A stretch of DNA of 64,000 bases. Origin: a virus. Its lineage: Duplodnaviria > Caudoviricetes. This document shows positions 4,117-59,706 of the stretch, piece after piece. The first letter of the stretch is position 1. Every line of letters starts with the position of its first letter. Where the stretch lies: IMG/VR virus record IMGVR_UViG_3300012984_000010; one strand, written 5' to 3'. The translations under genes were made by a program, and so were the position numbers. Below the pieces are notes generated by a model. That model did no database searches. It saw nothing but the letters and a program-made list of their open reading frames with translations, and was not told where the DNA came from.

Positions 4117-4174
4117 ACACGCCCTTTTAGGATTCGCCTAAAGGGCGTGCACAAGAAGACTAGGGAAATTCGGG

Positions 4175-5660: not shown

Positions 5661-5834
5661 TCACTTATGCTTGAACCATTCGACTTGTTCCAAGCGCTTC
5701 TCGGCTTCACCCTTCGAATCGTAGCAACCGCCGCTCCAAGAACCGTTGTCAGGCGAGCGCACGCAGTATTGACCCTTTTCTTTGCGGATCACGGCCTCTT
5801 TGAAGCGGGCTACAACGGAACGGGGCGAGATCAC
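5661..5834 (-). CDS. 57-aa protein (not in ORF track): MISPRSVVARFKEAVIRKEKGQYCVRSPDNGSWSGGCYDSKGEAEKRLEQVEWFKHK
   Basis: Manual translation from GTG 5834 to TGA 5661. It fills the gap between two genes, and its N-terminus closely resembles that of ORF 26015..26401. Confidence 0.8.
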   Translation of the reverse strand: MISPRSVVARFKEAVIRKEKGQYCVRSPDNGSWSGGCYDSKGEAEKRLEQVEWFKHK

Positions 5835-5840
5835 AAGGCC

Positions 5841-6488
5841 TCAGTGCCCCCAACCAGAAGACGTCTCATACTTCTCTTTGCCATCCCATTTGCTGGCATG
5901 ATGACCGTCGATCTTAGTCCCATTGGGGCCAGGAATCGAACGTTCCGCGGGACCATGGAAGCTGTTTGGCACAGCAACAACATAGCTAGCTCCCTGGGAC
6001 TCACGAACGACCTTTGAACCAATCGGCCTCGTGACGATCACTTTACCCTTGACTTCGACCACCTGAAAGAAGTTCACGTTCGTTTGGTCGTAACCCCACG
6101 TGCTATACAGGATGTCGCCCACCACAAAGCCGTGAACGTGGTTCTTACGGTCATCCACACGCTTCTGCTTGAATTCCAAGCTCAGCTTACGAGATTTGAC
6201 CGTTTCATCGATCTGACGTTGACGATTGGCGTCGCTCTTGAAAGAGTAGTTCCAAAGAGGCTTGTTCTGCTTGGCCGCAAACGCAATCGCGTAGAACTTG
6301 CCTTGACCTTCCCACTGCCAGATCGCCAAATCCGTGCCCTCTGGGGTGAGCGGAGCTTGATCCCTCACCTCTGCAGGTAGGTAGATCGACCTAGGCATCG
6401 TGAAGTTGGCTGCCGCCTTAAACCTAGCTGCCACGCCTTTGGCAGAGGCTTCTTTCGGAGACTTTTCTGTCGCGTTGATTTCAGCCAT
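5841..6488 (-). CDS. Phage hypothetical protein with GDILYSTWGYDQTNVNFFQV domain
   Basis: Start moved to ATG 6488 (SD AGGA); ORF track starts at 6506. Confidence 0.7.
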   Translation of the reverse strand: MAEINATEKSPKEASAKGVAARFKAAANFTMPRSIYLPAEVRDQAPLTPEGTDLAIWQWEGQGKFYAIAFAAKQNKPLWNYSFKSDANRQRQIDETVKSRKLSLEFKQKRVDDRKNHVHGFVVGDILYSTWGYDQTNVNFFQVVEVKGKVIVTRPIGSKVVRESQGASYVVAVPNSFHGPAERSIPGPNGTKIDGHHASKWDGKEKYETSSGWGH

Positions 6489-6508
6489 GTTCCTATAACG
6501 GCTCAAAT

Positions 6509-6516
6509 CATAAAGG
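6509..6516 (-). promoter_or_regulatory. Late-type motif CCTTTATG
   Basis: Same recurrent motif. Confidence 0.55.
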
Positions 6517-6548
6517 ATTAAGGAGGTTGAAAAAGATAGGCCAGTCGG

Positions 6549-7199
6549 TCAAATAGCCCAGTCGATAGGAGCCTCCCCGATCTGCTGAAGGGCCGCATTC
6601 ACTTTCGAAAAAGGCTTGGATCCAAAGAACCCGCTAGAGGCCGACATAGGGGAAGGGTGGGCCGACTCGATGATGGTATGCCTGGAGTCAATCAGGTCCT
6701 TCTTGGCCCTCGCATGACGGCCCCAAAGGACGAAGATGACCGGTTTCTCTCTGGAGCTGAGGGTTCGAATCACCTCATCAGTGAACTGTTCCCAGCCCTG
6801 CCCCTGATGTGAACCCGCCTGATGAGCTCGGACCGTCAAAGTGGTGTTAAGCAACAGAACTCCTTGGCGACACCATGGCTCCAACCAACCGGTCTTTGGT
6901 TTCTGGATCTCTAGGTCTTCCACCAGCTCCTTGAAAATATTGCGCAAGCTAGGAGGTAGTTGGGTGCCTGGTTGAACCGAGAAACTAAGCCCATGGGCCT
7001 GACCTGCCCCATGGTACGGATCTTGCCCCAAGATCACCACTTTGACATCATCGAAGGGCAGCTTGAAACAATTGAACGTATCTTGTGGGGGAGGAAAAAC
7101 AGGACCACGCTTCCGCTCAATGGCAACGAACTCAACCAACTCCTTGAAGTATGGCTTGGTGAATTCACCCGACAGGCGTTGCTTCCAAGAAGAATCCAA
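6549..7199 (-). CDS. ung: Uracil-DNA glycosylase, family 1
   Basis: VKVVILGQDPYHG, GLSFS, GVLLLN and HPSP motifs. Confidence 0.97.
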   Translation of the reverse strand: MDSSWKQRLSGEFTKPYFKELVEFVAIERKRGPVFPPPQDTFNCFKLPFDDVKVVILGQDPYHGAGQAHGLSFSVQPGTQLPPSLRNIFKELVEDLEIQKPKTGWLEPWCRQGVLLLNTTLTVRAHQAGSHQGQGWEQFTDEVIRTLSSREKPVIFVLWGRHARAKKDLIDSRHTIIESAHPSPMSASSGFFGSKPFSKVNAALQQIGEAPIDWAI

Positions 7200-7202
7200 T
7201 CC

Positions 7203-7538
7203 TCACCCTACCTTCAACCTAGCGGTATCCAGGATGGCCTGGAACTGCTCGGCTGGCAACAGCTCACGAGCTGTGGTCATGAAGCAGTTCTCCAGACTCC
7301 CTTGAGCGGCCTTGTTCTTCTGTCGCAACAGCAGCTGGATCTGCTGACATTGGCGACCCTTGCTCTTCAGTGCCCACTTGGCCCTACCCCACCAGTCCGA
7401 ATCGGCGAACTCACCCGTCTCTCTCGCCTTCGCCTGAGCGGCGTCAATTTGAGCTCGGATGGAATCGATGTCGGATTCCAGTGTTAGCTTTATTTGTAAC
7501 AGTTCTTCAGCTGATTTGGCGACGAGATCGTCAGGCAT
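7203..7538 (-). CDS. Small coiled-coil hypothetical protein
   Basis: 111 aa ORF preceded by a CGGTGTA motif. Confidence 0.7.
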   Translation of the reverse strand: MPDDLVAKSAEELLQIKLTLESDIDSIRAQIDAAQAKARETGEFADSDWWGRAKWALKSKGRQCQQIQLLLRQKNKAAQGSLENCFMTTARELLPAEQFQAILDTARLKVG

Positions 7539-7547
7539 ACGGTGCTG

Positions 7548-7554
7548 TACACCG
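7548..7554 (-). promoter_or_regulatory. CGGTGTA promoter-like motif (leaderless spacing)
   Basis: TA at -11/-10 relative to ATG 7538. Confidence 0.6.
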
Positions 7555-7591
7555 TCATCGGATGGCCATATTGGCCAATTGCGGCGGCTAT

Positions 7592-8194
7592 TTAAGCCTT
7601 GGACAACAACATCTTGTCCATTTGTGCGGTGGCGGCCCGAAGGTCCTGCCTAGCGTCAACCATTCTCTGGATAACCTGACCCAGCTCGTTGAACCAAGGA
7701 CGTAGCCTAGGGCTCTCGTCTACAGCGAGGTCTTGACAGAGGTTGACAGCCTCAGTGAAACTGCGATCGGCACCCTTATCTACCTTTGGAAGAATGTTTC
7801 GATTCAACAGATCGGCCAACTGTTCCTTCTTCTCTTGCAGTTCGGGATTTTCGGTCAAGTAGTCGGCAGTACCTTGGAGGAAATGAACGGCGTTTCGAAC
7901 GGCAGCCTCAATCCCACGTTGGTCTTGGGCCCTAGCAGCATCCATTCCCTGTTCGATTGCTGAAAGAACATGATCAAGGTGCTTCTTGGCGGCAGTATCG
8001 TCAATTTGACGAGATGCGTCCTTGATCTGGTCCACCACATCATCAAAAGCTTCCAAAATAGCCTTAGTGTCGTGAGTGCCGTCCCGCATGTATTTAGCAG
8101 CAATGGTGTTCAGACTGGTCTTAGCTTTATCAAGCTTTGACCGAATGTCGTTCTGAGCTGTAAACCGGCGGACGATATTTTTGGCTTGCGACAT
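7592..8194 (-). CDS. Helical hypothetical late protein
   Basis: 200 aa; late motif upstream; N-terminal SQAKNIVRRFTAQ. Confidence 0.65.
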   Translation of the reverse strand: MSQAKNIVRRFTAQNDIRSKLDKAKTSLNTIAAKYMRDGTHDTKAILEAFDDVVDQIKDASRQIDDTAAKKHLDHVLSAIEQGMDAARAQDQRGIEAAVRNAVHFLQGTADYLTENPELQEKKEQLADLLNRNILPKVDKGADRSFTEAVNLCQDLAVDESPRLRPWFNELGQVIQRMVDARQDLRAATAQMDKMLLSKA

Positions 8195-8210
8195 GATATC
8201 TGGGTAAGGC

Positions 8211-8220
8211 TATAAAAGGG
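8211..8220 (-). promoter_or_regulatory. Late-type motif CCCTTTTATA
   Basis: Same recurrent motif. Confidence 0.6.
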
Positions 8221-9369
8221 TCATTTGATGACGGCTTCCAACATCTGCACCTGCCCATCAGGCAAGGTCTCTTCAACGTAGTGATCGAACATCTCAGCGA
8301 AGTTCTCTACATAGCTGGTACGAGCGTAGGGACTGACAAAGGTTTCTTTCTTGAGGCCTTTGACGTTGATCCAACCACTCAGAGAGATTGATGCCTTGAT
8401 GGTAGGCTCCTCTTTGAGATGAACCTGGACCACCCAATCATAAGCTCGATTGAGCACTACCTTTTCCACCTCATACACCTTGCCGTCCTTGTCCTTGTGA
8501 AGATCTCCAGGCTTGGGCCAATTGGCCTTGTCGTTCAGGGCCTCTCTGAAGGCCGTTTCATCCCCGTTAAGAAGAGTTTTGTAGAGAGTCTCAATCTCAG
8601 CGTCTTTGCTCTTCAGGAACTTGAGATGTAGGCGGTGGCCCAACTCATGAATGATCGTACTGATAGCCGGTCCTTGCTTGCCTTTGAGGTTACCACGTAC
8701 GAAAAACTCGTCTGTTCTAGCAACGTAGAAGGCCAACACATTGGAGCTACGATTCACCGTATTGGTCACCTGAATGGTACCGTAGCAGATCTTGCCGAAC
8801 CCTTTGGCTTTGATCAGAGCGCTTGCTCGATCGACCACCTTGGCCACATCAGCCATCTGCTGGGCCGAAAAGTCGCCCGTATTGACGAGCGTGAAACATC
8901 CGGCCGTCTCAGTCGTGCCTGAGGCCTCATCGTTATGCAACTCTCCCTTCTTGATCACTCGATCCGCCGCATCCGCATACGACCGATAGGTGTCTACCTT
9001 CTTCTTGAGGACTTCAAGCGCTACATCAGGTTTAACTCTCTGGATGCGATTCTTGGAAAACTCCTTCGAAGCTTGCTCAATCAGCTTTCGATCGGCACTT
9101 GAAGAGATCTTGTATTGCTGCAAAATCCCCCAGAATATGCGATAAGCCCCCACCCGATTGAGGACTTCGAACGTCCCTGGCAGATAGACGGAGGCTCGGA
9201 GTGTAGTCAAAGAATCATCCTGAGCGGCACTAAGTTCGACCCACCTCTTCTCCATCGAATCCACTACTCGACGAAATTCGGCCAGAAGTGCCAGGATGTT
9301 TTCCGCCTCAGCCAATTTCCTACGATCATAGGACTCTGGGATTCGATAATCGTAGCTATAGTGGATCAT
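8221..9369 (-). CDS. Zincin (HExxH) metallopeptidase-domain protein
   Basis: IIHELGHRLH plus downstream SPYA...ENFAEMF third-ligand motif. Start likely ATG 9369 (SD GGGG); ORF track starts at 9387. Confidence 0.8.
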   Translation of the reverse strand: MIHYSYDYRIPESYDRRKLAEAENILALLAEFRRVVDSMEKRWVELSAAQDDSLTTLRASVYLPGTFEVLNRVGAYRIFWGILQQYKISSSADRKLIEQASKEFSKNRIQRVKPDVALEVLKKKVDTYRSYADAADRVIKKGELHNDEASGTTETAGCFTLVNTGDFSAQQMADVAKVVDRASALIKAKGFGKICYGTIQVTNTVNRSSNVLAFYVARTDEFFVRGNLKGKQGPAISTIIHELGHRLHLKFLKSKDAEIETLYKTLLNGDETAFREALNDKANWPKPGDLHKDKDGKVYEVEKVVLNRAYDWVVQVHLKEEPTIKASISLSGWINVKGLKKETFVSPYARTSYVENFAEMFDHYVEETLPDGQVQMLEAVIK

Positions 9370-9384
9370 GCCCCTAAGTTGAGG

Positions 9385-9394
9385 CATAAAAGGG
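9385..9394 (-). promoter_or_regulatory. Late-type motif CCCTTTTATG
   Basis: Same recurrent motif. Confidence 0.6.
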
Positions 9395-10324
9395 TCATTT
9401 GCTGGGCGGTCTGCCTATGGTTCTGGGATGTTCGATACCTAGGCGTTCGAGATGCCTTGTCACCGTTGTGGGTGCTTCATCCAGAATCTTCGCCATGCGT
9501 TTGATTGGAGTGCCGCAATCGACCAGCTCCTTAAGGCGTTCAAATGTGAGTTTTTTGCGTAGTTGGTACTGAGGCCCCTGGAATCCAAACGACAACTTGT
9601 AGTGCATACACTCTGGCATATGGGGCGTAATCAGGGCGATGAAACGTTCCGCCTGATCTTCACCCTCAAAGTGGAAGTTACCTGTGTTACCATCACACAC
9701 CTCCCAACGAGGCTTGAATCCAAGTCTCTCGAAGATGGTCAATGCTATTGCATGACTTGACGGCTGCATACCAAACGTGATGCGTGGCCACCAGCCAGAA
9801 GAACCGTCATCCATGAACCATATTGCTAGAGCCAAGTAATCCACCAAATCAACTACTTCTGGTTGCAGCTGTTTTGGCCCAGGATTGGGATAGAACAGGG
9901 CATGCCAGGAGAGAAGCTGAGTGTGGGAGACAGTTTCGAAACGCCAAGCTGGAAAGTCTCTGGAGATGTATAGAGGCTCAGTCTTTACCCAAGGTCCCCA
10001 TTCCTGGACTTTCCAATCCAAGTATGATTTCTGAGCTTCAGAGTGAAGCTCACAGTATCGAGCTACATTCAAGCTTTTTGAGATTCGACCATCCCCTAAC
10101 ATTGAGCCGACAAGCACCGATCGTAGTCGACCTTCGATTGGCACAATAAGATGCCTTTCTGTGCGACAAATGGTCTCAATACCAAATCGGCGACGCCAAG
10201 ATCTGACTCGTTTGACTGTTGTAGGGGCTCCTAAACGATCAGCTATTTGATCGTCTGTGAGTTTCTCGACTAGATACCAGCTACGTAGTTCTTCAGGGGC
10301 GACTGGGCACGATATAGATCTCAT
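9395..10324 (-). mobile_element. Free-standing LAGLIDADG homing endonuclease with HTH-like termini
   Basis: VLVGSMLGDG and LAIWFMDDGS paired motifs. It lies after the capsid gene stop and terminator. Start likely 10324; ORF track starts at 10342. Confidence 0.9.
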
Positions 10325-10360
10325 GATCTCACATCGTAGCATAACGGTGACTTAAGCTCC

Positions 10361-10399
10361 AAAGAAAAACGCCCCCAGAGATAACCCTGGAGGCGTTTT
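10361..10399 (-). terminator. Intrinsic terminator downstream of the major capsid gene
   Basis: Minus strand AAAACGCCTCCAG-GGTTATCT-CTGGGGGCGTTTT followed by CTTT. Confidence 0.85.
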
Positions 10400-10425
10400 C
10401 GATCAAGCCGTTAGGCTTATTGGGT

Positions 10426-11307
10426 TCAGATGCGGGTGACGACCAAACGGGTCATAGCACGCGGGTTGAATGCGCCTATGCCGACGTTCTGAAAACAGCT
10501 GAAACCAATTGTGCGGGCCTTCGGGTCATCCGCCGACAACACGGTCAGTTCCGTGCGGACGGGGAAGCGACCGAAGTTCTCTGGCTCGCCGCAGACGTAC
10601 ACGAAGCCGGCCGGAACCAGACGCGACGTGATGATCTGAGCACCCCAGAGGGTGGCCTGCAAACCTGTCTTGAGCAGGGTGGCCTGCGACTCGATATCCA
10701 GGATGTCGCGACCGAACTTGCGGATGTCCGCGTAGTCGGTGGCGTTCATGTAGATACGAGCAACACGGAGGTCGTGGCGTTCGATTTCCGCGAAAGCATC
10801 GGCGAGGACGCTTGGCGAGATCGGGGCCACCACGGCGATATCCGGGTTGGTCTGGCCGGGGAGGGTGTCGAAGCCCGAGACAGCGATGCTGTCGAGGACG
10901 GCGAACACGCGCTCATCTTCAGCGGCCTGAATCTGCGCCTTGGCGAGGTCCTGGCTGCGTTCAATGAGGTCGAAACGACGCTCCTTGATCTGGGTCAACG
11001 GTATTTCGGGGTTCGAGGCGATCTCGAACAACGGGAAGATGACACGACGTGGCTTCTGGATAGCCAAGATGTTCGAGCCTTCTTCGCCGACCACGAAAGC
11101 CGTAACTTCCGGATCCTTGTCGTAGATTGGCAATGCGCCGTCCGGTAGTTGTTCTACCAAGAAGGTCTTGCGACCAACGGCCGTGTAGTCACGGCGGAGA
11201 CGCAAGGGTTGGATCATCGAGGCTGCGAGCTTGGCACGACCGGCGGCGGTCTTGATGTACTCGGAGATGATCTGCTGCTTGACTTCGTTGCTTACTTGCT
11301 GAGGCAT
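10426..11307 (-). CDS. Major capsid protein (HK97-fold inferred)
   Basis: 293 aa. Follows protease, scaffold and decoration genes; strong terminator after it; marked GC codon bias; capsid-like pattern VEQLPDGALPIYDKD...VIFPLFEIASNPEIPLTQIKERRFDL. Confidence 0.88.
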   Translation of the reverse strand: MPQQVSNEVKQQIISEYIKTAAGRAKLAASMIQPLRLRRDYTAVGRKTFLVEQLPDGALPIYDKDPEVTAFVVGEEGSNILAIQKPRRVIFPLFEIASNPEIPLTQIKERRFDLIERSQDLAKAQIQAAEDERVFAVLDSIAVSGFDTLPGQTNPDIAVVAPISPSVLADAFAEIERHDLRVARIYMNATDYADIRKFGRDILDIESQATLLKTGLQATLWGAQIITSRLVPAGFVYVCGEPENFGRFPVRTELTVLSADDPKARTIGFSCFQNVGIGAFNPRAMTRLVVTRI

Positions 11308-11354
11308 AGCTTTGTTTTCCTTACGGGAATTCCCTTAGAGGCCTAGTTTCCCGC

Positions 11355-11972
11355 TCAGATGCGGAGATCGAATACCAAGAGCGTGTTGTTCGCATCGGGG
11401 GCTACCTTGAGGATGCCGACGATGGTGGGTGTGTTGGCGCTGAGGGCACCGAACTTTTCATAGGCGTCAGCCGCCACGTTGGTGATGAACCCGTTTGCCG
11501 AAGCATAGAGGGCATCGCCAGGAGCGTAGGTCAGAGCCGCGCTACCTGAAGCTAGGTTCTGGGTTTCCCAGAGCGAAACGCCGACTGTACCGAAGCCGCA
11601 GAGGTATGGGCCACGACCAGAGGCAACACCAGGGGTGTTTTCGAAGGCGTTACCCAACGAATCGTTGATGAAGAGGCCGAGTGGCTTCTGGCCAACCACG
11701 TAGGCTGCGCCTACCTGGGCAGGACCACCGTGAAAGCCGTTACCAGCGTCTGGACGAGTGAATGCGAAGCTGGCGCCCAAGACGCCTAGTTTGCTGATAC
11801 CTGCGAGGGTTGTGCTTTTGTTGGCACCGGCAGTGACGTTCACGGGGTTGGCTTGAGTGAAAGCGTCCGCCGTCAAGACGCCAACGCTGTTGCGTTGACC
11901 GACGTGGAAGATCTGCACTCTGCCGGAAGTTTCCCTGAAGTCACCCGAGCCTTGGCCGAGAGATAGAGGCAT
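11355..11972 (-). CDS. Capsid decoration/auxiliary protein
   Basis: 205 aa, Gly/Ala-rich beta protein directly upstream of the MCP; TYAPGDALYASANG pattern. Confidence 0.65.
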   Translation of the reverse strand: MPLSLGQGSGDFRETSGRVQIFHVGQRNSVGVLTADAFTQANPVNVTAGANKSTTLAGISKLGVLGASFAFTRPDAGNGFHGGPAQVGAAYVVGQKPLGLFINDSLGNAFENTPGVASGRGPYLCGFGTVGVSLWETQNLASGSAALTYAPGDALYASANGFITNVAADAYEKFGALSANTPTIVGILKVAPDANNTLLVFDLRI

Positions 11973-12053
11973 ATTGAAATTCTCCTAAAAATGGGCTTTG
12001 TTGCTGGGGGACGAAATTTACATCTAGATATTGAGTATTAGGTCTTCAGCAAT

Positions 12054-13280
12054 TCAGATGCCGAAGATGCCCTTCACGTCTGGAGCCGACTGCCAGAGGC
12101 TCGACAACTTGTCGATATCTCCGCCCGTAGCAGCGTTTCCACCGCTACCGATTGCCGACACACCAACTGAGGGCTGAGTGCCAATCGTACGCTTAGAGGC
12201 CGTACGGGTTGTGTGCACAGTCGAAGCCTGAACCGGAATACCAGTCAGGATTGCGTTTGCTTGCTGTGCTTCGATGACTTCTTGATTGGAAGCAAACAAG
12301 GTCTTGAGAACCTCATCCTCGGAAGCGGCGATGTGAGTCTCACCAACATCCATCGAGATACCGTCCAACTCAATGTCATTGAAGCTATTGGCCAACACTG
12401 GCTGACCAACCTCGTCTTGGAGCATCTGGTCCAGCAATTGGTCATCACCCAACTGCTGCTGAACCTGAGCGGGAGCCTGTTGCTGCTGTCCTTGACCCAG
12501 AGCTTGCTGGAACAACGACATAACCTGATCCTGCTGCAAGCCCGTCTGGGCCATCGCATCACAAGCGGCCTTGAAAGCCTGGTAGGCAGCTTGCTTCTTC
12601 TGCTCTTCCGCATCATCCTTAGCCTGCTGCTGAGCCTGCTTTTGCTGCTCTTCGTCAGCCTGCTGAGCTTGCTGCTGGGCTTGCTTAGCCTGCTGCTCCT
12701 GGCCCTCTTCCTTCTCATCCTTCTTCTTGAAGTTCTCAGGAATCTGACCAGCTTGCTTCTGCTCTTCCGAGTCTTGAGCTTGCTGTTGCTGAGCTTGTTT
12801 GCTCTGCTCTTCTTCGTCTTCCTCTTCGGCTGCCAGACGATTGACAGATTCGATCAAAGCTGCATCAGGCATATGCATGAATGCGAGAGCTTGATCTTCA
12901 ATCATCGACTCAGAAGCCTTCTTGGACAGGCAGCGCTTGGCCAGCTTGATGCAGAGAGAGGCCTTCTTCTCCAGCACCTCATCTTCCGCAGCAGCTTCTT
13001 CTTGCTGTTCAGCAGCTGTCTTCTCAGCATGGTTGAAAGTGTCACCACGTAGTTCGGGCATTCCGATCTCGTTGCGCTTGACTTCACCACCGCTGTACTC
13101 AGCTTTCCAAGTAGTGTTGGATGGATGAACATCTTCGGCGAAATCCGAAGGTCCACCGATCTCATACTTGTCGGCTGCCGGTTGTTGGCTCAAATGGTCT
13201 TGGTTCATTGCACGGGGGTCTTCTGCAATTCTGACGTTCTGTGCAATCTTTTCACGATTCCAGGTGGTGCGTTCGCGCAT
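12054..13280 (-). CDS. Capsid scaffolding protein
   Basis: Acidic, Q/E-rich low-complexity helical protein between the protease and capsid genes. Confidence 0.65.
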   Translation of the reverse strand: MRERTTWNREKIAQNVRIAEDPRAMNQDHLSQQPAADKYEIGGPSDFAEDVHPSNTTWKAEYSGGEVKRNEIGMPELRGDTFNHAEKTAAEQQEEAAAEDEVLEKKASLCIKLAKRCLSKKASESMIEDQALAFMHMPDAALIESVNRLAAEEEDEEEQSKQAQQQQAQDSEEQKQAGQIPENFKKKDEKEEGQEQQAKQAQQQAQQADEEQQKQAQQQAKDDAEEQKKQAAYQAFKAACDAMAQTGLQQDQVMSLFQQALGQGQQQQAPAQVQQQLGDDQLLDQMLQDEVGQPVLANSFNDIELDGISMDVGETHIAASEDEVLKTLFASNQEVIEAQQANAILTGIPVQASTVHTTRTASKRTIGTQPSVGVSAIGSGGNAATGGDIDKLSSLWQSAPDVKGIFGI

Positions 13281-13315
13281 GACGGGATCACCCTTTCCTA
13301 TGCCTTGTAGTGGGG

Positions 13316-13324
13316 TATAAAGAG
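13316..13324 (-). promoter_or_regulatory. Late-type motif CTCTTTATA upstream of the scaffold gene
   Basis: Same recurrent motif. Confidence 0.55.
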
Positions 13325-13326
13325 AT

Positions 13327-14874
13327 TTACGATTTCGAGAGATCGAAAAGTTTGCCTTTTGTGATCAAGGCATCGGTCTCTGATGTGGTCAGTTCTCGTC
13401 CAACTGCTCGACGACAAGCCGCCAAGTAGCTATCTGCATCTCCGTAAGCCAACATCCCGCCAACAGTCAAAACGGTGCGGTAGATTCGATGTTCGCCTGC
13501 AATCCTAACTCCCTGGATGTTGTCCAGAAAGCGTGAGATTGCCAGTACTTCCGTTCCTGAGTACGAAGCTTCTTTGACGGCTTGCCAACCGCCATTCTTG
13601 AACAACAACAAGCCAGTCAAGACCTTGCGAGCCATCTCTGGATTGGGTGTTTGGGCCAACACCACCTCTGCTAGACGCTTCCAAGAGGAGCTCTTTTGGA
13701 CCGCTTCACGCAGCAAAGTGTTGTTCTGATTTTCTTTCAAATCGGCACGAGGGGGGAGATCTTTTTGATTCATCTCACCTCGAACCTTCTCCAACGCCTT
13801 CTCTTTGATCAGATCAGCCAGGCTATCGACTGCCTTATCTATGGGTTGCTGATCTTTCTTAGGGTTGGCCGGAGCCGCTTGATCAGCCCCTTCAAATTGT
13901 TCTTGATCCTGTGATGGATGCGAAGGATCCGATAGAGAAATCCTAGTACGAGGAGCAATGGCAGGGTTCTGAACACGACTCACAACCCTCATATCGTTGG
14001 TCTGCAGATGAGCCGCTTTTCCGAATTGAGAAGCGTCCGGAACCTGAGTGGGCATCGAGAAGGCGACTTGCACCTTGTTACCAACCTTGGCCAATTCATC
14101 TGGAGTTAGGATGTTGCGAACCACCGCCCCCTTGAAAGCAGGATTGGCGACCCAACTGGCCTCAATAAACTTGACCGAGCGAGGATCTGTCACATGGCCG
14201 CACAGCTCGGCAATCTTACGAGTCCTCCCCAGAGCATCAATGAACTGATTGCCCTTGGAGTATTTGATGTGTTGACAGAGCTGGGTCTCGTCTTCCGCCA
14301 CATTCCCACATTGTGTGCAGGTTGTGTGGGCGACCGTGCAACCCATACTTAGAGTCTGTAGTTGCTGAGACTTGATGGCCGCAATCAGAGGGGAATGCTT
14401 GAGTTCCGTTGCTACCAAGATGTCTACGTAGACCGTGTCTCCAAGATCACGAGCCGCCGCATCAATGATGCGTCCCTTAGACAACTCAGGTATTTGCAAA
14501 TGTTCTACGTAATTCTGACCACCAATGAAGGTGCGGAACGTTGCGAGCAACAAGTTACGTTCCCAGCTATCCTGATTGCTGTTGACATACTGTGCCGTCT
14601 TGGTAGTGATGTAGTAGTCTTGATAACGACGATCGATCTGGAAACCGTTATCAAACGTACGTCCCAACTGACCAGGACCGTTCTCGGTATCGACAGACGC
14701 GATGATGGTACAGTGTGTAAGCAGATATTCTTTGGGGTCGTATTTCTGGACCACTTCCAAGCTGGCTGTCTTGGCAAAAGCTCCGCCCATCGACTTGGCA
14801 CGCAAATCGTCCCATGTCGACATCGTTACGACGGGCTGAACCACCGCCGCATTGGCGTACTTGGAGAAGGCCAT
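13327..14874 (-). CDS. Prohead maturation protease with zinc-ribbon insert
   Basis: YVEH (His), LSMG (Ser), CTQCG...CQH insert and FIEASWVANPA motif; upstream of the scaffold gene. Confidence 0.75.
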   Translation of the reverse strand: MAFSKYANAAVVQPVVTMSTWDDLRAKSMGGAFAKTASLEVVQKYDPKEYLLTHCTIIASVDTENGPGQLGRTFDNGFQIDRRYQDYYITTKTAQYVNSNQDSWERNLLLATFRTFIGGQNYVEHLQIPELSKGRIIDAAARDLGDTVYVDILVATELKHSPLIAAIKSQQLQTLSMGCTVAHTTCTQCGNVAEDETQLCQHIKYSKGNQFIDALGRTRKIAELCGHVTDPRSVKFIEASWVANPAFKGAVVRNILTPDELAKVGNKVQVAFSMPTQVPDASQFGKAAHLQTNDMRVVSRVQNPAIAPRTRISLSDPSHPSQDQEQFEGADQAAPANPKKDQQPIDKAVDSLADLIKEKALEKVRGEMNQKDLPPRADLKENQNNTLLREAVQKSSSWKRLAEVVLAQTPNPEMARKVLTGLLLFKNGGWQAVKEASYSGTEVLAISRFLDNIQGVRIAGEHRIYRTVLTVGGMLAYGDADSYLAACRRAVGRELTTSETDALITKGKLFDLSKS

Positions 14875-14877
14875 GAC

Positions 14878-15264
14878 TTAGAACACCTCGAAAGGAGGCA
14901 AACCTAGGAATCGATCAACGAGGCGATTGGCAGAGGCATACTTGGGGGATTTACCGCTCGCAATGAACTCATCAATCATCTTGATTACCGCCTTGACAGG
15001 CGGCATATCGTTCACGTGGAATTTCTTAATGAGGGCCGCCTTCAATGCATTTAACGCCTCAGGAGTTGATTCGTTCAAATAGGAATGAACCAACTGCTCA
15101 GCTTCCTGTTTGGCACCCAGCCAAAGAGAAAGACGATAGATGTTGTCTGGACGACCCTTCTTTAGGGCGTTCTGCTGAAGAAGCTTGTCATAGCGAGTGA
15201 GACGGCCCACTAGGATGGTCAAGAAATTCTTGACAGTGCCTGGAATGTTGGCTGATCTCACCAT
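14878..15264 (-). CDS. Hypothetical late protein
   Basis: 128 aa; C-terminal KYASANRLVDRF. Confidence 0.6.
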   Translation of the reverse strand: MVRSANIPGTVKNFLTILVGRLTRYDKLLQQNALKKGRPDNIYRLSLWLGAKQEAEQLVHSYLNESTPEALNALKAALIKKFHVNDMPPVKAVIKMIDEFIASGKSPKYASANRLVDRFLGLPPFEVF

Positions 15265-15968: not shown

Positions 15969-15994
15969 TTGCCCGTCCCTTACTAAAACTTAGT

Positions 15995-16390: not shown

Positions 16391-16415
16391 TTGTGGGGTT
16401 CCTAAGTCCTTCTAG

Positions 16416-16425
16416 GTAAAAAGGG
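16416..16425 (-). promoter_or_regulatory. Late-type motif CCCTTTTTAC
   Basis: Same recurrent motif. Confidence 0.5.
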
Positions 16426-16426
16426 T

Positions 16427-19261: not shown

Positions 19262-19277
19262 GCACCCTTACAAAATG

Positions 19278-19286
19278 CATAAAAGG
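19278..19286 (-). promoter_or_regulatory. Late-type motif CCTTTTATG
   Basis: Same recurrent motif. Confidence 0.6.
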
Positions 19287-19299
19287 ACCGTTAGTTGAT

Positions 19300-21132
19300 T
19301 CAGTACCTTGAATCCTCTTGAGGAGGGGCTTCTTGCTTGATCTCTAGGCCTACGTATTTGGCCATCCGTTCCAAAACATCTGTCTTTTCGGCCAAGACTC
19401 GGCCTACTTCATTGTAGAGCGATCGAAGGACTTCGTTGAACAAGGCATCGTTGACCGTGAACAAATCCCGCTCAATCTTGGCTTTGGTATCGTTGGGGTC
19501 GATATTGAGCATTTCCAGAATCAAATCGATCGAAATCGAGCCCTTCTGGTACAGATTGTACAGGGCGTCGAAAGTGTCTTGGCTGTCTCGCAACGGCAAG
19601 CGAGTGAAGCTTAGACGCGGATGTAGCACCACTTCTTGCCCCCACTCGTCCTTCTCTATGAAGCCCATCCTACGTGCCACAGGAGCAAACAGTTGATCTT
19701 CAACGTATTCCTGGAGTATTTCTCTCAGATGTAGGTAACGCTGGTTGATCACCTCTAGTTTGAGACGATCCCCACTGTAGAGCGATTCACCACTCATCAA
19801 ACTCTCAGTGACGCCCAGACCAGTAAGGATACGACGTTCGGTCTGCTCATACTCGCTAGCAAGATCAAGGAGGCGATCCTTGGACCCCATCTCTTCCCAA
19901 TGGATCTCGTAATTGGTCACAATCGAGTAATCTGGGTCCTGCATCGAGTAGTCGACCTGCTCACGCAACAGATCGGCATCCACATCGCTCAACCCTTCAG
20001 CCCACACAACCCGCTTGGGAGTCATTGCCCTTGAGGCGATCGATGTCTGTGCTTGGCGGAGCTTGTCCCTGAAATAAAGCGTACTCAGACACCTGTTCAG
20101 TATCGATTGCCCAAGATTCGAATCAGCCGATTTGCTGCCTGTCAGGATGAACGCAAACGACCCTTCATCAGGATTGGTACCAAGCGGGATCGTTTTCCCC
20201 GTCATGGTGTATTCGCGTATTTCTTCAGGTATTTGGGACGCCAGACGCTCAGCAGCCGGATCCCCCAAAGCGGCCCGTTCTAGGATGGCCTTATCACGGT
20301 CAGAAGGGATCAGCTCAATGATCGAGTCGTCAGAATAGTCGAAAGGAGTGATAATCACTCGATCAATAGGCAGAACACGGATTCTGGACCAACCCTGATA
20401 ATGTTTCTGGTAGTACTTGTGTTCTTCCTGCTCACGATCTTCACGTTCAACCAAGACCGATTCGTCTTGTTCGATCGCCTCGCCTTCCTCTGTGAGGAAG
20501 GATTGCTTGACCACACGTCGCTCATACCCAACTTCTTCAGGTAGGTCTACCCGCCCATCCTCAGCAAAAACCACCGCCGCCCCATCTAACCAATAGTGGT
20601 GAACCATCGTGATCAGCCGACGGAACAGCTTGGTCTTTTTACACATACGCTCGAATCTATCGAGAATGTATTTGCCGTAATTGTCCGCACTACTGAAACC
20701 TGGGGGAGCTTCCCGAGGCTTGGGAGCCGCGAGACGTATTTTCGACAACGGTAGTTCGGTGTGGAGGTCAATCGCCTGCCCCACCAATTCATCGTTCTCG
20801 TAGAAGTGTCGGTAAATCTCACGACGTTCTCGGATGCTTTGAGGCAGTTCCAAGAAGTCGGTTGACAGTTGGGGACTGAAGAAGTTGCCGTGGGAACTTT
20901 GGATGGTTCCCGCCCCCATCCCGCCCCCATAACCGCCGCTAAAGCCAGTCCCGCCTGGCCCCATACCGCCAATGCTTGAGGCCATCTTGAGCTGTTGACG
21001 GGCCAGACGTTCCTTATAGGTCAGCTGATTGCTATAGGACCCAGCGATGTGAGGGGTTGCCTGGGGGCGAACAGAAGTTCGCACCAAATACTGCCCAGGA
21101 CTCGAATAGTTGGTGTAGCGATCATTCGCCAT
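19300..21132 (-). CDS. Portal protein
   Basis: 610 aa between terminase and protease; helical portal-like pattern (VGQAIDLHTELPLSK; ILTGLGVTESLMSG; INQRYLHLRE). Confidence 0.8.
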   Translation of the reverse strand: MANDRYTNYSSPGQYLVRTSVRPQATPHIAGSYSNQLTYKERLARQQLKMASSIGGMGPGGTGFSGGYGGGMGAGTIQSSHGNFFSPQLSTDFLELPQSIRERREIYRHFYENDELVGQAIDLHTELPLSKIRLAAPKPREAPPGFSSADNYGKYILDRFERMCKKTKLFRRLITMVHHYWLDGAAVVFAEDGRVDLPEEVGYERRVVKQSFLTEEGEAIEQDESVLVEREDREQEEHKYYQKHYQGWSRIRVLPIDRVIITPFDYSDDSIIELIPSDRDKAILERAALGDPAAERLASQIPEEIREYTMTGKTIPLGTNPDEGSFAFILTGSKSADSNLGQSILNRCLSTLYFRDKLRQAQTSIASRAMTPKRVVWAEGLSDVDADLLREQVDYSMQDPDYSIVTNYEIHWEEMGSKDRLLDLASEYEQTERRILTGLGVTESLMSGESLYSGDRLKLEVINQRYLHLREILQEYVEDQLFAPVARRMGFIEKDEWGQEVVLHPRLSFTRLPLRDSQDTFDALYNLYQKGSISIDLILEMLNIDPNDTKAKIERDLFTVNDALFNEVLRSLYNEVGRVLAEKTDVLERMAKYVGLEIKQEAPPQEDSRY

Positions 21133-21604: not shown

Positions 21605-21623
21605 CAGGAAATCATCCAGTGTA

Positions 21624-22145
21624 TCACAGTCCCGTCTGAACTCCCAACCAATAGTTGTTCAACGCTTTAGGAATCTGAGCTACAAAGCCAACGAAGAATG
21701 CTGGGGCTAGGGGGTTAGAGGGGATTTGTTGGGACAACTCATCCTCATTCGTAAACAATCCCCGTAAAGAGAAGTACAGAGGGTCGTTTGGCTTGTAGGT
21801 CAAAGGCACCAACGGTCCAGAAAGCCTTGAGGCGTAGGTGTAGCGCTCATAGGTAGAGGTACTGATCAGCGCTCCACCGAACATCATGACCGCATAACGG
21901 TAGGTTATTTGCTGATCCGTCATAGACGTATAGCGAGCCCCCACCTCTTCAGAACCCTCCAGCAAAAACCCGCCGTACAGGCCGCTCGAATAAGTTACCA
22001 CACGATCGTCCACACTCGCCCCAACCCATTGGACTCCCTGACCTCCAGCCCAACCCCCGGACAACATCGCATCGGAGATTGCAACAGTAGTGGTGTCACC
22101 CTTGAAGAAGACCACACAATCACGGAAACGTGCAATTTCGGTCAT
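21624..22145 (-). CDS. Decoration-like paralogue 3
   Basis: Obvious homology to the two upstream ORFs (RDCVVFFKGD...YERYTYASR..GPLVP...FSLRG). Confidence 0.7.
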   Translation of the reverse strand: MTEIARFRDCVVFFKGDTTTVAISDAMLSGGWAGGQGVQWVGASVDDRVVTYSSGLYGGFLLEGSEEVGARYTSMTDQQITYRYAVMMFGGALISTSTYERYTYASRLSGPLVPLTYKPNDPLYFSLRGLFTNEDELSQQIPSNPLAPAFFVGFVAQIPKALNNYWLGVQTGL

Positions 22146-22660
22146 ATAGATGTTTGCACTCCGAGGTAGGAATCATTCAGTGATTTGGGGGATTGTGTGA
22201 CGGATCCAATGTAATAACCATTTGGAGCTCTAGGGTCTCCTGAGAGGGTCCATTCATCTTCTGTGGTGAAATACCCTCGAAGTGAGAATCTGAGGCGTTG
22301 CCCTTCCACATACTGAATGGGCACCAAAGGGCCTGAAATTCTAGAGGCATAGGTGTACCGCTCATACGTAAGGGTGCTGATCAACCAGCCTCCAAGACAG
22401 AGGACCCCAAACCCATATTCAATCTGATTCTTGAAGAATGATACGTACTGATCTGAAGATTCGTTGGATCCCCAAAGGAAGAAGCCCCCATATAGACCGT
22501 CCGAGTAGGTCACTCTGAATTCATCGAGGGGTGAGTCTTGCCACATCACCGCTTGACCCCCGGCCCAACCACCTTGTTTCATTTGAGGAGAGATGGCGAC
22601 CGTGTAGGCGTCCCCCTTGAAAAACACCACGCAATCCCGAGTTCGGAAGATCTCAGTCAT
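22142..22660 (-). CDS. Decoration-like paralogue 2
   Basis: Same family; ATGA overlaps with neighbours. Confidence 0.7.
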   Translation of the reverse strand: MTEIFRTRDCVVFFKGDAYTVAISPQMKQGGWAGGQAVMWQDSPLDEFRVTYSDGLYGGFFLWGSNESSDQYVSFFKNQIEYGFGVLCLGGWLISTLTYERYTYASRISGPLVPIQYVEGQRLRFSLRGYFTTEDEWTLSGDPRAPNGYYIGSVTQSPKSLNDSYLGVQTSI

Positions 22661-22803
22661 ATGCTCACCTGTATGGTCATGTACTGAGAAGTCACAGATG
22701 TAGGAGGTTGGATCACAAAAGCTATGAAATACTCGTTGGCTCCCCTAGGGTCTCCAGTCAGTGTCCACTCATCTTCTGTGGTGAAATACCCTCGAAGTGA
22801 GAA
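22254..22803. repeat. 35-nt perfect direct repeat shared by paralogues 1 and 2
   Basis: TCATCTTCTGTGGTGAAATACCCTCGAAGTGAGAA at 22254-22288 and 22769-22803. Confidence 0.9.
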
Positions 22804-23181
22804 CACAAGCCGGTCGCTAGATTGATACGTTATGGGGACCAACGGCCCTGCTTGCCTAGAAGCATAGGTGTACCTCTCAAAAGCAGTCGTCATGATGACC
22901 CAGCCACCTGCCCCAATGGTGGCGAATTGATAGGCAGGCTGATTCTTGGTGATGGCGGTAAATTGATCTGACGATTCATCAGATCCCCAAAGCAGGAATC
23001 CCGCATACAGGCCGTCCGAATAAGTGACGCGAAATTCATCTCTAGCGGCCGCTACCCATTGAACTCCCTGACCACCTTGCCAACCTTTGGCAGCCATCAA
23101 CTGATCTACAGTGACAGTGTAACAATCTCCTTTCACAAGGATCACACAATCACGTGTGCGGTATTGCTCAGGAGGCATCAT
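22657..23181 (-). CDS. Decoration-like paralogue 1
   Basis: Same family; ATGA overlaps with neighbours. Confidence 0.7.
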   Translation of the reverse strand: MMPPEQYRTRDCVILVKGDCYTVTVDQLMAAKGWQGGQGVQWVAAARDEFRVTYSDGLYAGFLLWGSDESSDQFTAITKNQPAYQFATIGAGGWVIMTTAFERYTYASRQAGPLVPITYQSSDRLVFSLRGYFTTEDEWTLTGDPRGANEYFIAFVIQPPTSVTSQYMTIQVSI

Positions 23182-23462
23182 TCATCCTTTGGTTCACGTT
23201 TTCTATCAGGGGATTGCCCCCACTTAGATATGATGCGTTCGAGAAACGTAAGCTGCTGGATGTCCCCTCTAAATAGCTTCTCCCAGCTACCGCCACCTTT
23301 TCGGAACACCAACCTCAGAAGCATGAAATCTTCTGGATTGATGATCAAGTCTGCCCCCAACAAATGGTCCGCAAATTGGCGAATCACCCGATTGGAGAAC
23401 ACAAGCTGTAGAGGACGGGGCTCTTCCAATTCACCCTCTCCTTCGGACAGAACGACGTCCAA
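23178..23462 (-). CDS. Small hypothetical protein
   Basis: 94 aa; overlaps the terminase end and is translationally coupled to the next gene. Confidence 0.5.
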   Translation of the reverse strand: MDVVLSEGEGELEEPRPLQLVFSNRVIRQFADHLLGADLIINPEDFMLLRLVFRKGGGSWEKLFRGDIQQLTFLERIISKWGQSPDRKREPKDE

Positions 23463-25434: not shown

Positions 25435-25442
25435 TCGCTACC

Positions 25443-26018
25443 TCATAGATTCTGGGCTTTTTCTGTCCAGCCATCCAATTCGGTCTCAAGGCGGTTGAAA
25501 AGCATATCCACTTGTTCGGTAGTCAGGGTCTCGGTAGCCGCGTTCCGAATTGTGTCGATGAAAAACGCGAAGACTTTTTGCATCCGTTCACTGTTGAAAT
25601 CGATGAAGTTGTGTCCCAACTTCCGCATCTCTAGTTCGATCGAGGCCACATCTTTGAGGGCACCAATCCGTCGACTAGATATTTGGGTCGTATCTTTGCC
25701 GTATTTGGCAGCCTCCACCCGATCACAGTAGAGGGAAGCCGCCTCATTGGCGATTTCCTCTTTGATCTTCTGCAACGTCTCAAGAGGATCTTGGCGTGTC
25801 TTGACTGCTTTGGCTACTGAGTCTGATTCAATGTACTCCGCCTTCAATCGCTGTATTTCAGCGTGGTAGGCCAGGTCATCTACGGTCGGCTTGGGATTGA
25901 TTTTCTTCGGCCGACCAGGTCCTCGTTTGATAGGGCCGGTAGCAGCGTGCATCGGCACCACCATCGCCAAAGGACCTATTTTCGCCGTATCTGAATTTTC
26001 ATTTTCATCTGACATCAC
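25443..26018 (-). CDS. Probable terminase small subunit
   Basis: Helical 191 aa ORF immediately upstream of terL; AT-hook-like KRGPGRPKK. Confidence 0.55.
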   Translation of the reverse strand: MMSDENENSDTAKIGPLAMVVPMHAATGPIKRGPGRPKKINPKPTVDDLAYHAEIQRLKAEYIESDSVAKAVKTRQDPLETLQKIKEEIANEAASLYCDRVEAAKYGKDTTQISSRRIGALKDVASIELEMRKLGHNFIDFNSERMQKVFAFFIDTIRNAATETLTTEQVDMLFNRLETELDGWTEKAQNL

Positions 26019-26401
26019 TTCTTACCTTCCGCCGTTCCTTTCGCGCCATTCCCCTCAGTACGAATCAAGTATTGGGACAAGTTACGTACTACATCGTAAC
26101 CCTTGTCTTTCGGGATCTGATTGGAGATAGCCTTGGACAGGTCCTTGCCCGATTGAACCAAGTTCAGTACCCCCGTCTGGTCTGGAGTAGGGGTGAACAC
26201 ATCCTCAGGGCGAAGATCTCGCCGATCCGGCTCCACAATGTCATCCCCCTCATCCTTGGATGTCCCGTAATCTTTCGTGATAGCCGTACCTATCCCCTTG
26301 GGCTTGTTGATAGGCGTGGTGTTTTTCCACGCCTTTTGACGAGCGCCAGGAGCTTGGTCCGCTTGCTTGAAGCGAACCACAATCCGACGTGCGGAGATCA
26401 C
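26015..26401 (-). CDS. Hypothetical late protein
   Basis: 128 aa; N-terminal MISARRIVVRFKQA. Confidence 0.65.
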   Translation of the reverse strand: MISARRIVVRFKQADQAPGARQKAWKNTTPINKPKGIGTAITKDYGTSKDEGDDIVEPDRRDLRPEDVFTPTPDQTGVLNLVQSGKDLSKAISNQIPKDKGYDVVRNLSQYLIRTEGNGAKGTAEGKK

Positions 26402-28386
26402 AGTCGAACTTTCTGATGGCTCCCAAACTCGATATTCTGGCTAGCTGTCTTTAGTTCGGGTTGGAGGTCAAAGCTCCCATCATCGTGCTGGAGCTGATAC
26501 TCTTGCATCACGCTCAAGCCGTTGTTCATGAGGCTTTCGTACGACACGACAGTTGAGGCGCCAGAGGCCAAAATGGCTCGTTGTTCGGCCATTTTGTCGA
26601 TATAAGGGGGTTCAACTACCAATTGCTTGTTGATGACTGAGCAGAAGCCAGGACGAGTTTGATGCACACAGGAAGCGCACTTGTCCCCTACCTTCAGGTA
26701 CTGTACTGCCGCCCTAGAACGGTGGGCTGTTGAGGCAGTGGCACAACCCTTCCCATAGTCGTCATAGACGGTGGGATCGATGTACTTGATACCCTGTAGA
26801 CCCTGTTCGGCCAACACCACTTTGAGCTCACCCGCTGTTGCTTGAAGGTCCCGTACGTCAAAACGGCTCTTCAGCAGATTGAGCAGGTCTTGGCCGTAAA
26901 GGCCTTCGTTCATGTACTTGGAAGCCGACTTTAGGATCTCTCGTTTGGTCAACTCATTGGTGCTGGCAGCCCTGGATTGCCCATAGAAAGCCTTCTCAAT
27001 CGAACTACGGACCGCTGAGCCGCTGGACGCCAACGGGGCAGAAGCGGCCTTGTGGATGGCCTTGAGAGCCTCAACTGGAGTCGGACCCCACGAACACTTG
27101 GCAGCATCGTGCGGCAACTTTCCTGCAATGCGGTGCTCATCCAACACCGCTGCAACCGTGGTGGGGGTCAAGACTGCTTCAGCAGAAGCCACCAATGCGC
27201 GGCCGTACATCATGCAGCGGCCCACCTTGTTGAAGATACAGGTCTGGCACTTGTCACCCGCCACAATGGCTCGAACCTTCGATCCGTGCTTGTTGATAAA
27301 GTCCGCCCCCTCTCGACAATCATCGAACGAGGTCTGATTGGAGTAAACAGCCCCATAGAGGCCTGCTTGCTTGAACAACGGCACCCACTCGGACTTGGTT
27401 TCCTCAAGCAACGTCAGGTCGAAAGCGAGCCTCAACGCATGAACCAGCTCTGGCTCACTATGACCCTTGAGCATTTCACGGCTCAAAAGAGCAATGATTG
27501 GGCGGGCCTTGGAAGCTGCGATCTTTTGCTGAGCTTCAACATCCCGCTTCTTGGTCAGGCTCGCGACTGCAATCAATTGCTCAGAAGTGTTGCCTTGAGG
27601 GATAGGAGCTTGTGGAGCTTGTGGTCGGCCCGTAAAGGCTACTGGAATGGTCGACATCTCACCCAAAAAGGCTTGACGAATACGTTCCTTGGGGGTGCTT
27701 CCCGTAGAAGCCTGGACCGATCTTCCCCTTGCCGCTTGTTGTTTCTCAATCGTACTGGCCAACGCTTCAGTGTATGGAACCTCAATCTGAAGGTCCTTGT
27801 GAAACACACCACACACACTGCTACCGTCAGCCTGCACAGAGCGGTGTACACAATCACCGCAAGCCTGCTTGGCAAGAACGAACGGAGCGTCTAGGGCGAA
27901 ACGGCGGACGAACTCTGAAGCAGTTTTACCCCCTTTAGCACAATCAGGGAAGTCGGCCGCGCTGATGTACAGCTTACCAAGTAGACCACGCTCAGCCATG
28001 ACGGTCGCCAGAGCGGTTTTGGCTAGACCCAAGACGGTAGAGTCGTACCTAGAAGATAAGGCATGACTGATCTTCTGGGGGTCCGTTGACTGCATAATCG
28101 CCAAACGAGCAGTACGAATCAAATCTTCTGGGACAGAACGGAGTTTTCCGTGGATAGACGACAGATCGCCCATCGTCTTTGGTTCCCCCTTGTTGGGTAC
28201 CAATCTTGAAGGAGACTCGTCCTGATGGTTCCACAAGGCAATCAGATCTGGAGCGATATCCAGATTCTGCTTTGGCAGGCGATCCTGAGCACGATACTCA
28301 GCCTCATCGACATCCAGCCAATCCAAATCTGAGACGCCGGAGCTGCCCTCTTTCATAAAGTTGGTCAAGTCGCCAAGATCAGCCAT
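26398..28386 (-). CDS. Protein with three internal Cys-rich repeats
   Basis: GLxGxxY...DC...CxxC...C unit repeated three times. Confidence 0.65.
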   Translation of the reverse strand: MADLGDLTNFMKEGSSGVSDLDWLDVDEAEYRAQDRLPKQNLDIAPDLIALWNHQDESPSRLVPNKGEPKTMGDLSSIHGKLRSVPEDLIRTARLAIMQSTDPQKISHALSSRYDSTVLGLAKTALATVMAERGLLGKLYISAADFPDCAKGGKTASEFVRRFALDAPFVLAKQACGDCVHRSVQADGSSVCGVFHKDLQIEVPYTEALASTIEKQQAARGRSVQASTGSTPKERIRQAFLGEMSTIPVAFTGRPQAPQAPIPQGNTSEQLIAVASLTKKRDVEAQQKIAASKARPIIALLSREMLKGHSEPELVHALRLAFDLTLLEETKSEWVPLFKQAGLYGAVYSNQTSFDDCREGADFINKHGSKVRAIVAGDKCQTCIFNKVGRCMMYGRALVASAEAVLTPTTVAAVLDEHRIAGKLPHDAAKCSWGPTPVEALKAIHKAASAPLASSGSAVRSSIEKAFYGQSRAASTNELTKREILKSASKYMNEGLYGQDLLNLLKSRFDVRDLQATAGELKVVLAEQGLQGIKYIDPTVYDDYGKGCATASTAHRSRAAVQYLKVGDKCASCVHQTRPGFCSVINKQLVVEPPYIDKMAEQRAILASGASTVVSYESLMNNGLSVMQEYQLQHDDGSFDLQPELKTASQNIEFGSHQKVRL

Positions 28387-57699: not shown

Positions 57700-59706
<2,007 letters not shown>

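Follow-up and report, generated by a model that had tools for sequence, protein, structure and literature searches.

In bacteriophage T4, the internal head proteins IPI, IPII, IPIII and Alt carry a short N-terminal capsid-targeting sequence (CTS; MKTYQEFIAE), which is removed by the prohead protease gp21. The T4 internal proteins are basic, and known internal head proteins are generally basic and often disordered. Encapsulin shells are loaded by means of short peptides that are attached through a flexible linker to either terminus of unrelated cargo proteins and that bind a pocket on the inside of the HK97-fold shell protein. A third type of docking element is the basic amphipathic helix at the end of viral scaffold proteins, represented by the helix-turn-helix of phage P22 gp8 and by the C-terminal tail of the herpesvirus scaffold; the P22 helix has served to load foreign cargo. 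Here we analyse a short peptide that recurs in a stretch of 64,000 nucleotides (the window; IMG/VR record IMGVR_UViG_3300012984_000010) from an uncultured huge phage, whose genes lie almost all on the minus strand. The window lies within a contig of 142 kb, and the identical sequence is also found on a contig of 475,623 bp. A preliminary description of the window had noticed this peptide in seven proteins and had proposed that it is a portable tag that recruits cargo into the procapsid.

The peptide, in the following called the tag, may act like the T4 CTS or like an encapsulin cargo-loading peptide; it is a sequence relative of neither, and the function is proposed by analogy. As with the T4 CTS, a short peptide is common to unrelated, mostly basic proteins from scattered genes, it is N-terminal in many of them, and its instances in the window concentrate around the head genes. 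Compared by eye, the tag has no sequence likeness to the CTS, and it is basic whereas the CTS is acidic or neutral. Furthermore, the CTS is N-terminal, whereas the tag is also found at C-termini and in internal disordered regions and can be doubled. The CTS is removed by the prohead protease, whereas cleavage and encapsidation of the tag would be predictions. With the encapsulin peptides the tag shares the shortness, the flexible linker and the use of either terminus of unrelated carriers, and the candidate receptor would again be a small HK97-fold capsid protein, with 293 amino acids (aa) and an unusually conserved sequence. In contrast, the consensus differs from that of known encapsulin peptides. 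The shell would here be that of a phage, which packages DNA and has a portal, a protease and a scaffold, and the tag is a candidate ligand of its capsid protein. Like the P22 and herpesvirus elements, the tag is predicted to be a basic amphipathic helix at a protein end, and its docking site would be the inside of the capsid. However, these helices are found on the scaffold alone, whereas the tag occurs on about 20 proteins and the 408-aa scaffold-like protein of the window lacks it.

The coordinates of the instances were verified by translation. For scoring, a matrix was trained solely on relatives' orthologues of the N-terminally tagged 128-aa protein (gene 26015-26401). The seven peptides are located as follows.

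5793-5834, minus strand: N-terminal tag (M/V)ISPRSVVARFKEA of a 57-aa protein (gene 5661-5834), matrix score 20.7
6411-6449, minus strand: tag ASAKGVAARFKAA, residues 20-32 of a 221-aa protein (gene 5841-6506, phrog_37844)
8153-8194, minus strand: N-terminal tag MSQAKNIVRRFTAQ of a 200-aa helical protein (gene 7592-8194)
14899-14937, minus strand: C-terminal tag ASANRLVDRFLGL of a 128-aa protein (gene 14878-15264), six residues before the C-terminus
19040-19075, minus strand: internal tag SVGRVVRRFARN, residues 63-74, in the N-terminal region of a 944-aa protein (gene 16427-19261)
26360-26401, minus strand: N-terminal tag (V/M)ISARRIVVRFKQA of a 128-aa protein (gene 26015-26401)
27886-27921, minus strand: ASEFVRRFALDA (EFVRRFA), residues 156-167 of a 662-aa protein (gene 26398-28386)

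All seven peptides are thus present where the preliminary description had placed them, and six fit one conserved motif. The peptide of the 662-aa protein lies within a uniformly conserved folded stretch and below the matrix threshold; it is probably a coincidence and no tag. The carriers had been called non-homologous, and an all-against-all BLASTP comparison bore this out, as likeness was found at the tag only. Orthologues keep the tag in both 128-aa families and in the 57-aa, 221-aa and 944-aa families. It is present in 14 of 14 orthologues of the N-terminally tagged 128-aa protein, and it lies at positions 55-78 in 20 of the 32 full-length orthologues of the 944-aa protein, some of which contain a second copy. 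Homologues of the 221-aa protein start with M-x(4-8)-tag, one of them with two tandem copies, and relatives of the other 128-aa protein keep the C-terminal tag as SVDRVIDRFFGVKPLI, SVDRVVDRFLGINTGT and AAQRLVARFQGV. For the 200-aa carrier, no homologue was found in a collection of 5.8 billion proteins, and its tag can therefore not be checked by conservation. The tags of the 221-aa protein (N-terminal, 6411-6473) and of the 128-aa protein (C-terminal, 14899-14964) are part of a 21-residue likeness, KSPK-(E/Y)-ASA-x-x-(V/L)-x-x-RF, which suggests that the tag has been copied within the genome. The two N-terminally tagged genes with a GTG start differ in their context: that of the 57-aa protein has GAGG 4 nt ahead of the start, and the start of gene 26015-26401 overlaps the stop of the 662-aa gene. 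An AlphaFold2 model of the 128-aa product of gene 26015-26401 was of low confidence (predicted local distance difference test, pLDDT, 49) and mostly disordered, and the tag itself was not confidently modelled.

From a set of 59 instances, with at most three per family, the 12-residue consensus [L/S]-A-[R/Q/K]-R-V-[A/V]-A-R-[F/Y]-[L/K]-x-A was deduced, for which MDLARRVAARYLQAA is an example. With the [F/Y] position taken as zero, 57 of the 59 instances have Arg at -1; Val at -4 is shared by 46, Arg at -5 by 45 and Ala at -7 by 41, and conservation ends after +3. A preference this strict for individual residues speaks for a single, specific protein receptor. If the tag is drawn as a helix, V, A/V, F/Y, L and A lie on one face and the other face is rich in Arg. 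The hydrophobic moment is 0.43-0.62, the mean hydrophobicity is about -0.2 to -0.35, and the non-polar face is rich in Ala. By this prediction, the tag is a basic amphipathic helix. The K-x-A site that the preliminary description had seen beside the motif corresponds to tag positions +1 to +3 ([L/K]-x-A), but there is no sign of cleavage at this site. In the relatives, L-x-A is commoner than K-x-A. Within genomes, position +1 is K in the window and in the relative G002, and L in the relative G001; this hints at co-evolution with a receptor and is too weak to be used.

The conserved residues of the tag are encoded by all synonymous codons. For example, Val is encoded by GTG, GTA, GTC and GTT in 21, 18, 17 and 17 cases, and all six Arg codons are in use. 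The sequences upstream of tagged genes differ. Given this free synonymous variation and the differing upstream sequences, selection acts on the peptide and not on a DNA or RNA element.

When the complete proteome of the 142-kb contig was ranked with the matrix, the instances of the 221-aa, 57-aa and 944-aa proteins took the top three places, and the C-terminal instance came fifth. Among about 100 related IMG/VR loci, 24 families scored at least 14, compared to about three in reversed or shuffled sequences; after correction of the start codons, 34 unrelated clusters of proteins were counted as carriers. When five complete or near-complete genomes were searched with a profile, each gave 2-15 matches, spread along its length. 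In G002, a complete relative of 451,925 bp with 669 open reading frames, 23, 16 and 13 matches were found at thresholds of 12, 14 and 16, compared to 2.15, 0.65 and 0.15 in shuffled sequences. The number of tagged proteins in G002 is therefore roughly 20, or about 3% of the genes. The motif search across the proteome and the related phages, which the preliminary description had proposed as a check, has thus revealed enrichment over shuffled and reversed sequence and a motif kept by orthologues. An exact-pattern scan of IMG/VR for A-R-R-V-A-A-R-F/Y-L with CGN codons for Arg identified three loci; two of them share a C-terminal instance and one resembles a chance frame, and the pattern is too narrow to gauge the spread. 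A literature search found no description of the tag.

The position of the tag within its carriers is variable, with a preference for the ends. In G002, a start codon lies at most eight codons upstream of 17 of the 23 matches, and one match ends one residue before the stop codon. For 95 distinct instances, an ATG was found within eight codons upstream in 41% of cases, compared to 17% of control positions (p = 2e-8); the value of 41% is diluted by the internal 944-aa family, which is included. Independent gene calls in public databases begin at the Met of the tag. Members of the 57-aa family are tagged N-terminally (nine), only C-terminally (four; e.g. ...VEYFKHKGAAARVVARYLKALP) or at both ends (one). 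The type IB topoisomerase orthologues of G002 and G001, which are 61% identical, both have an N-terminal tag, and that of G001 has a strong C-terminal one in addition; in the observed layouts, the domain spans residues 35-236 with the tag at 5-15, or residues 70-268 with the tag at 300-310 of 318. Another family has one tag at each end, and tandem or double tags occur. A doubly tagged gene is apparently frameshifted near its 3' end in locus L050 (6633-8033, compared to L054:8995-10284); the C-terminal tag can be read in another frame at L050:7861-7920, and the frameshift is probably an assembly error. These comparisons show a conserved, modular, position-independent and sequence-specific peptide on many unrelated proteins. 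The term portable, used in the preliminary description, is apt: there are dozens of unrelated carriers, conservation is at the peptide level, either terminus is used, and N- and C-terminal positions are exchanged within one family.

The carriers themselves are little characterized by similarity. A search of 50 tagged proteins against Pfam and PHROGs yielded matches to Topoisom_I and GNAT and, beyond these, only to three PHROGs without known function. The type IB topoisomerases matched PF01028 with E-values of 1e-25 to 1e-28 (L112:1489-2310 in G002 and L116:610-1566 in G001), and the GNAT protein is an acetyltransferase. The tag is usually linked to its carrier by a flexible linker. The tagged proteins of G002 have a median isoelectric point of 9.4, compared to 6.6 for the remaining proteins (p = 0.007), and of 8.65 if the tag is left out.

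The head module occupies the region 10-29 kb of the window, and the replication genes lie at 31-64 kb. The following genes of the window are relevant for the interpretation of the tag.

10426-11307, minus strand: major capsid protein, 293 aa; matches phrog_2522 at 3.9e-51 and phage G gp27 (PDB 6WKK) at 3.5e-70
11355-11972: decoration-like protein, 205 aa; assigned by gene position alone, compared to phage G gp26
12054-13280, minus strand: acidic scaffold-like protein rich in Q and E, 408 aa, between the protease and capsid genes; likely the scaffold
13327-14874, minus strand: prohead protease, 515 aa; matches phrog_18299 (head maturation protease) at 6.8e-11
19300-21132, minus strand: portal protein, 610 aa; matches phrog_16240 at 9.4e-25 and the portals of Tunturi_5 and phage G
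23431-25434: large terminase
57700-59325: GroEL-like chaperonin gene of the phage

The 408-aa protein has conserved islands in its N-terminal (1-150) and C-terminal (355-408) parts, and a family search with it gave no match. Three tandem paralogues of 172-174 aa (21624-23181) lie between the portal and terminase genes, and relatives contain one to three copies of them. Several genes of the head region are preceded by a (G/A)CCCTTTT box in place of a Shine-Dalgarno sequence (about 4117-4160, 8195-8220, 9388-9394, 16391-16426 and 19262-19299), and an inverted repeat, CACGCCCTTT...AAAGGGCGTG, lies ahead of the gene at 2620-4116. These boxes and the repeat could be promoter or terminator elements.

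Relatives of the phage are LR745208.1 (485 kb) and, more distantly, Tunturiibacter phage Tunturi_5 and Bacillus phage G. The clade consists of phage G-like huge phages of 400-530 kb from soil and freshwater, which are abundant and uncultured. The capsid gene was found in more than 500 IMG/VR loci (503 confirmed), on contigs of up to 529 kb, and the capsid protein is 93-98% identical in the best 80 of the 503 confirmed loci. In relatives with a portal identity of 60% and a protease identity of 48% (48-60% for portal, terminase and protease together), the capsid protein has a median identity of 90%. The capsid protein is, by this comparison, under unusually strong constraint.

The best single guess for the purpose of the tag is loading of proteins into the capsid, to which we assign a probability of roughly 45%. 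The tag would be a portable docking peptide that works at either end of a protein, and one common receptor would read it across the clade. By means of the tag, about 20 proteins of each genome, most of them basic, would enter the procapsid during assembly; they would be packaged together with the DNA and might be passed on to the next host. The proposed cargo comprises head-module proteins, variable proteins of unknown function, the type IB topoisomerase and the GNAT acetyltransferase; candidate receptors are the inner face of the capsid protein, the scaffold, the protease or the portal. This guess is based on the location of the contig's instances in or beside the head module, on three clade-wide families that flank head genes, on variable tagged genes close behind the capsid gene, and on the basic and often disordered character of the carriers. 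In the 142-kb contig, all six good instances are found at 5.6-26.4 kb, in or beside the module of portal, protease, scaffold, capsid and terminase genes. None is found in the replication genes at 31-64 kb; an equal frequency in replication proteins was what the preliminary description had named as evidence to the contrary. The three clade-wide families are encoded beside the portal gene, which the 944-aa gene adjoins, directly upstream of the prohead protease gene (C-terminally tagged 128-aa protein), and after the terminase gene (N-terminally tagged 128-aa protein). The near-invariant capsid protein would make an attractive receptor, since phages with otherwise divergent head proteins still share the tag; we offer this as an argument and not as a result.

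Several observations weigh against capsid loading. In the complete genome G002, the head module (63-86 kb) contains only three to four of the roughly 20 tagged genes, and the rest are located in small scattered islands. No tag was found in the protease, scaffold-like, portal or capsid proteins, all of which were searched, and no receptor was identified. The tag is lost or decayed in 12 of the 32 orthologues of the 944-aa family. No cleavage site can be defined from the sequence. No member of the clade has been cultured, no proteomics data were found, and no carrier is known in a virion. Furthermore, the topoisomerase and the acetyltransferase could equally be directed to some intracellular hub. 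The proposal of the preliminary description that the tag recruits cargo into the procapsid is therefore plausible with respect to the location in the contig and the basic carriers, but it is opposed by the few tagged head-module genes of G002 and by the missing receptor. Co-folding of the capsid protein with residues 1-40 of the tagged 128-aa family gave a score of 0.01 (mark 0.32), which speaks neither for nor against binding. The stretch E-V-L-A-I-S-R-F-L-D in the C-terminal domain of the protease is only loosely tag-like and in a different register, and it was not counted.

Among the alternatives, docking onto a common hub other than the procapsid deserves the most attention, although we consider it rather doubtful. 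The hub might be a protease or an adaptor, of phage or host, with the tag as a degradation signal that times the removal of its carriers, the phage chaperonin, or a ubiquitin-like conjugation set. Terminal, position-independent and sequence-specific peptides are likewise typical of degradation signals and hub-binding motifs. The scattered location of most tagged genes in the whole genome, the carriers that act on DNA or by acetylation, and the lack of an identified capsid receptor would all be accounted for. On the other hand, it would be odd if the clade-wide head-module proteins encoded next to the portal, protease and terminase genes were marked for destruction rather than assembly. The confinement of the tag to the head region of the window's contig also speaks against such a hub, and no link between the tag and any of the named hubs was found. 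Targeting of the carriers to the host inner membrane by an amphipathic helix, comparable to the terminal helices of MinD, FtsA and MreB, is improbable. Helices of the MinD/FtsA type have a bulky hydrophobic face, and their sequences are little conserved from protein to protein. The tag is terminal, transplantable, basic and amphipathic, with a moment that would suit this role. However, its Ala-rich non-polar face is weakly hydrophobic, and the conservation at -1, -4 and -7 (57, 46 and 41 of 59) extends far beyond the needs of lipid binding. Moreover, a sister lineage has a quite different leader of 27 residues, which suggests a co-evolving protein partner.

Direct binding of nucleic acids by an arginine-rich motif, as in the N-termini of the lambda and P22 N proteins, with DNA- or RNA-associated carriers, is more improbable still. 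The three conserved arginines, the basic carriers and the topoisomerase among them would fit. But the tag contains just three basic residues and has an obligatory hydrophobic face (V, A/V, F/Y, L, A), most carriers are without a recognisable nucleic-acid domain, and the replication and transcription proteins of the window do not have the tag. Hardly any weight can be given to chance, to a by-product of composition, or to a DNA or RNA element at gene starts. Look-alikes of such a short motif do arise, as illustrated by the 662-aa instance and by a match in a histidine-kinase G2-box (GLAIVKRIVERH). However, the excess over shuffled and reversed proteomes is ten- to ninety-fold, orthologues conserve the tag, and it is found at C-termini as well as N-termini; an element in DNA or RNA is contradicted by the free variation of synonymous sites. 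A twin-arginine translocation (Tat) signal was rejected. Tat signals consist of S/T-R-R-x-F-L-K, a hydrophobic stretch and an A-x-A cleavage site, and are N-terminal only. In the tag, R-R is split from F/Y-L by V-A-A-R, no hydrophobic stretch follows, and C-terminal copies exist.

A more specific form of capsid loading, which we put forward tentatively and as possible rather than probable, would resemble that of encapsulins. The receptor would be the scaffold or the inner surface of the small, almost invariant HK97-fold capsid protein. About 20 different proteins would be loaded and co-injected, among them the topoisomerase, the acetyltransferase and many fast-evolving proteins without known function, and sister lineages would have switched their address peptides. 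In LR745208.1, whose capsid protein is 83% identical, a different N-terminal leader of 27 residues, MTTLRSKLIRLAHENPALRPQLLPLLK, is found on 11 proteins across 485 kb. Its copies include those at 29133-29213 and 36760-36840 of locus L001, and it was matched from the first residues in every case seen. The leader is absent from G001 and G002, which use the ARRVVARF-type tag. In phage G (L103, 1-37000), many proteins of the head region begin with M-K-R-L-I-K-K or similar (gp5, 9, 12, 13, 17, 20, 38 and 53), and in this relative, the only one in culture, the peptide may be a counterpart of the tag. Published particle proteomics of phage G reports that proteins were detected very broadly. From these comparisons, the sharing of a terminal peptide looks like a general trait of huge phages, each lineage having an address of its own.

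Variable tagged genes cluster directly downstream of the capsid gene (L023). In the window, a gene for a homing endonuclease of the LAGLIDADG/HNH type (9395-10342) directly follows the capsid gene. A putative uracil-DNA glycosylase, recognised by eye, is encoded at 6549-7199 and matches phrog_12143, which has no assigned function. Since these two genes lie among tagged genes, the stretch is a mixed, variable island. Also downstream of the capsid gene, positions 8221-9387 encode a 388-aa protein with the zinc-protease motif HELGH, which has no tag and gave no family match.

If the tag is a loading signal, it would allow the packaged and probably injected proteins of uncultured phages of 400-530 kb to be listed from sequence only. 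Such a list would include topoisomerase IB, whose packaging into virions is otherwise known from poxviruses. This short peptide could then also be fused to either terminus of a foreign protein in order to load it into a large phage capsid. If the receptor lies elsewhere, a peptide found on about 3% of the genes still points to a central hub of the infection cycle.

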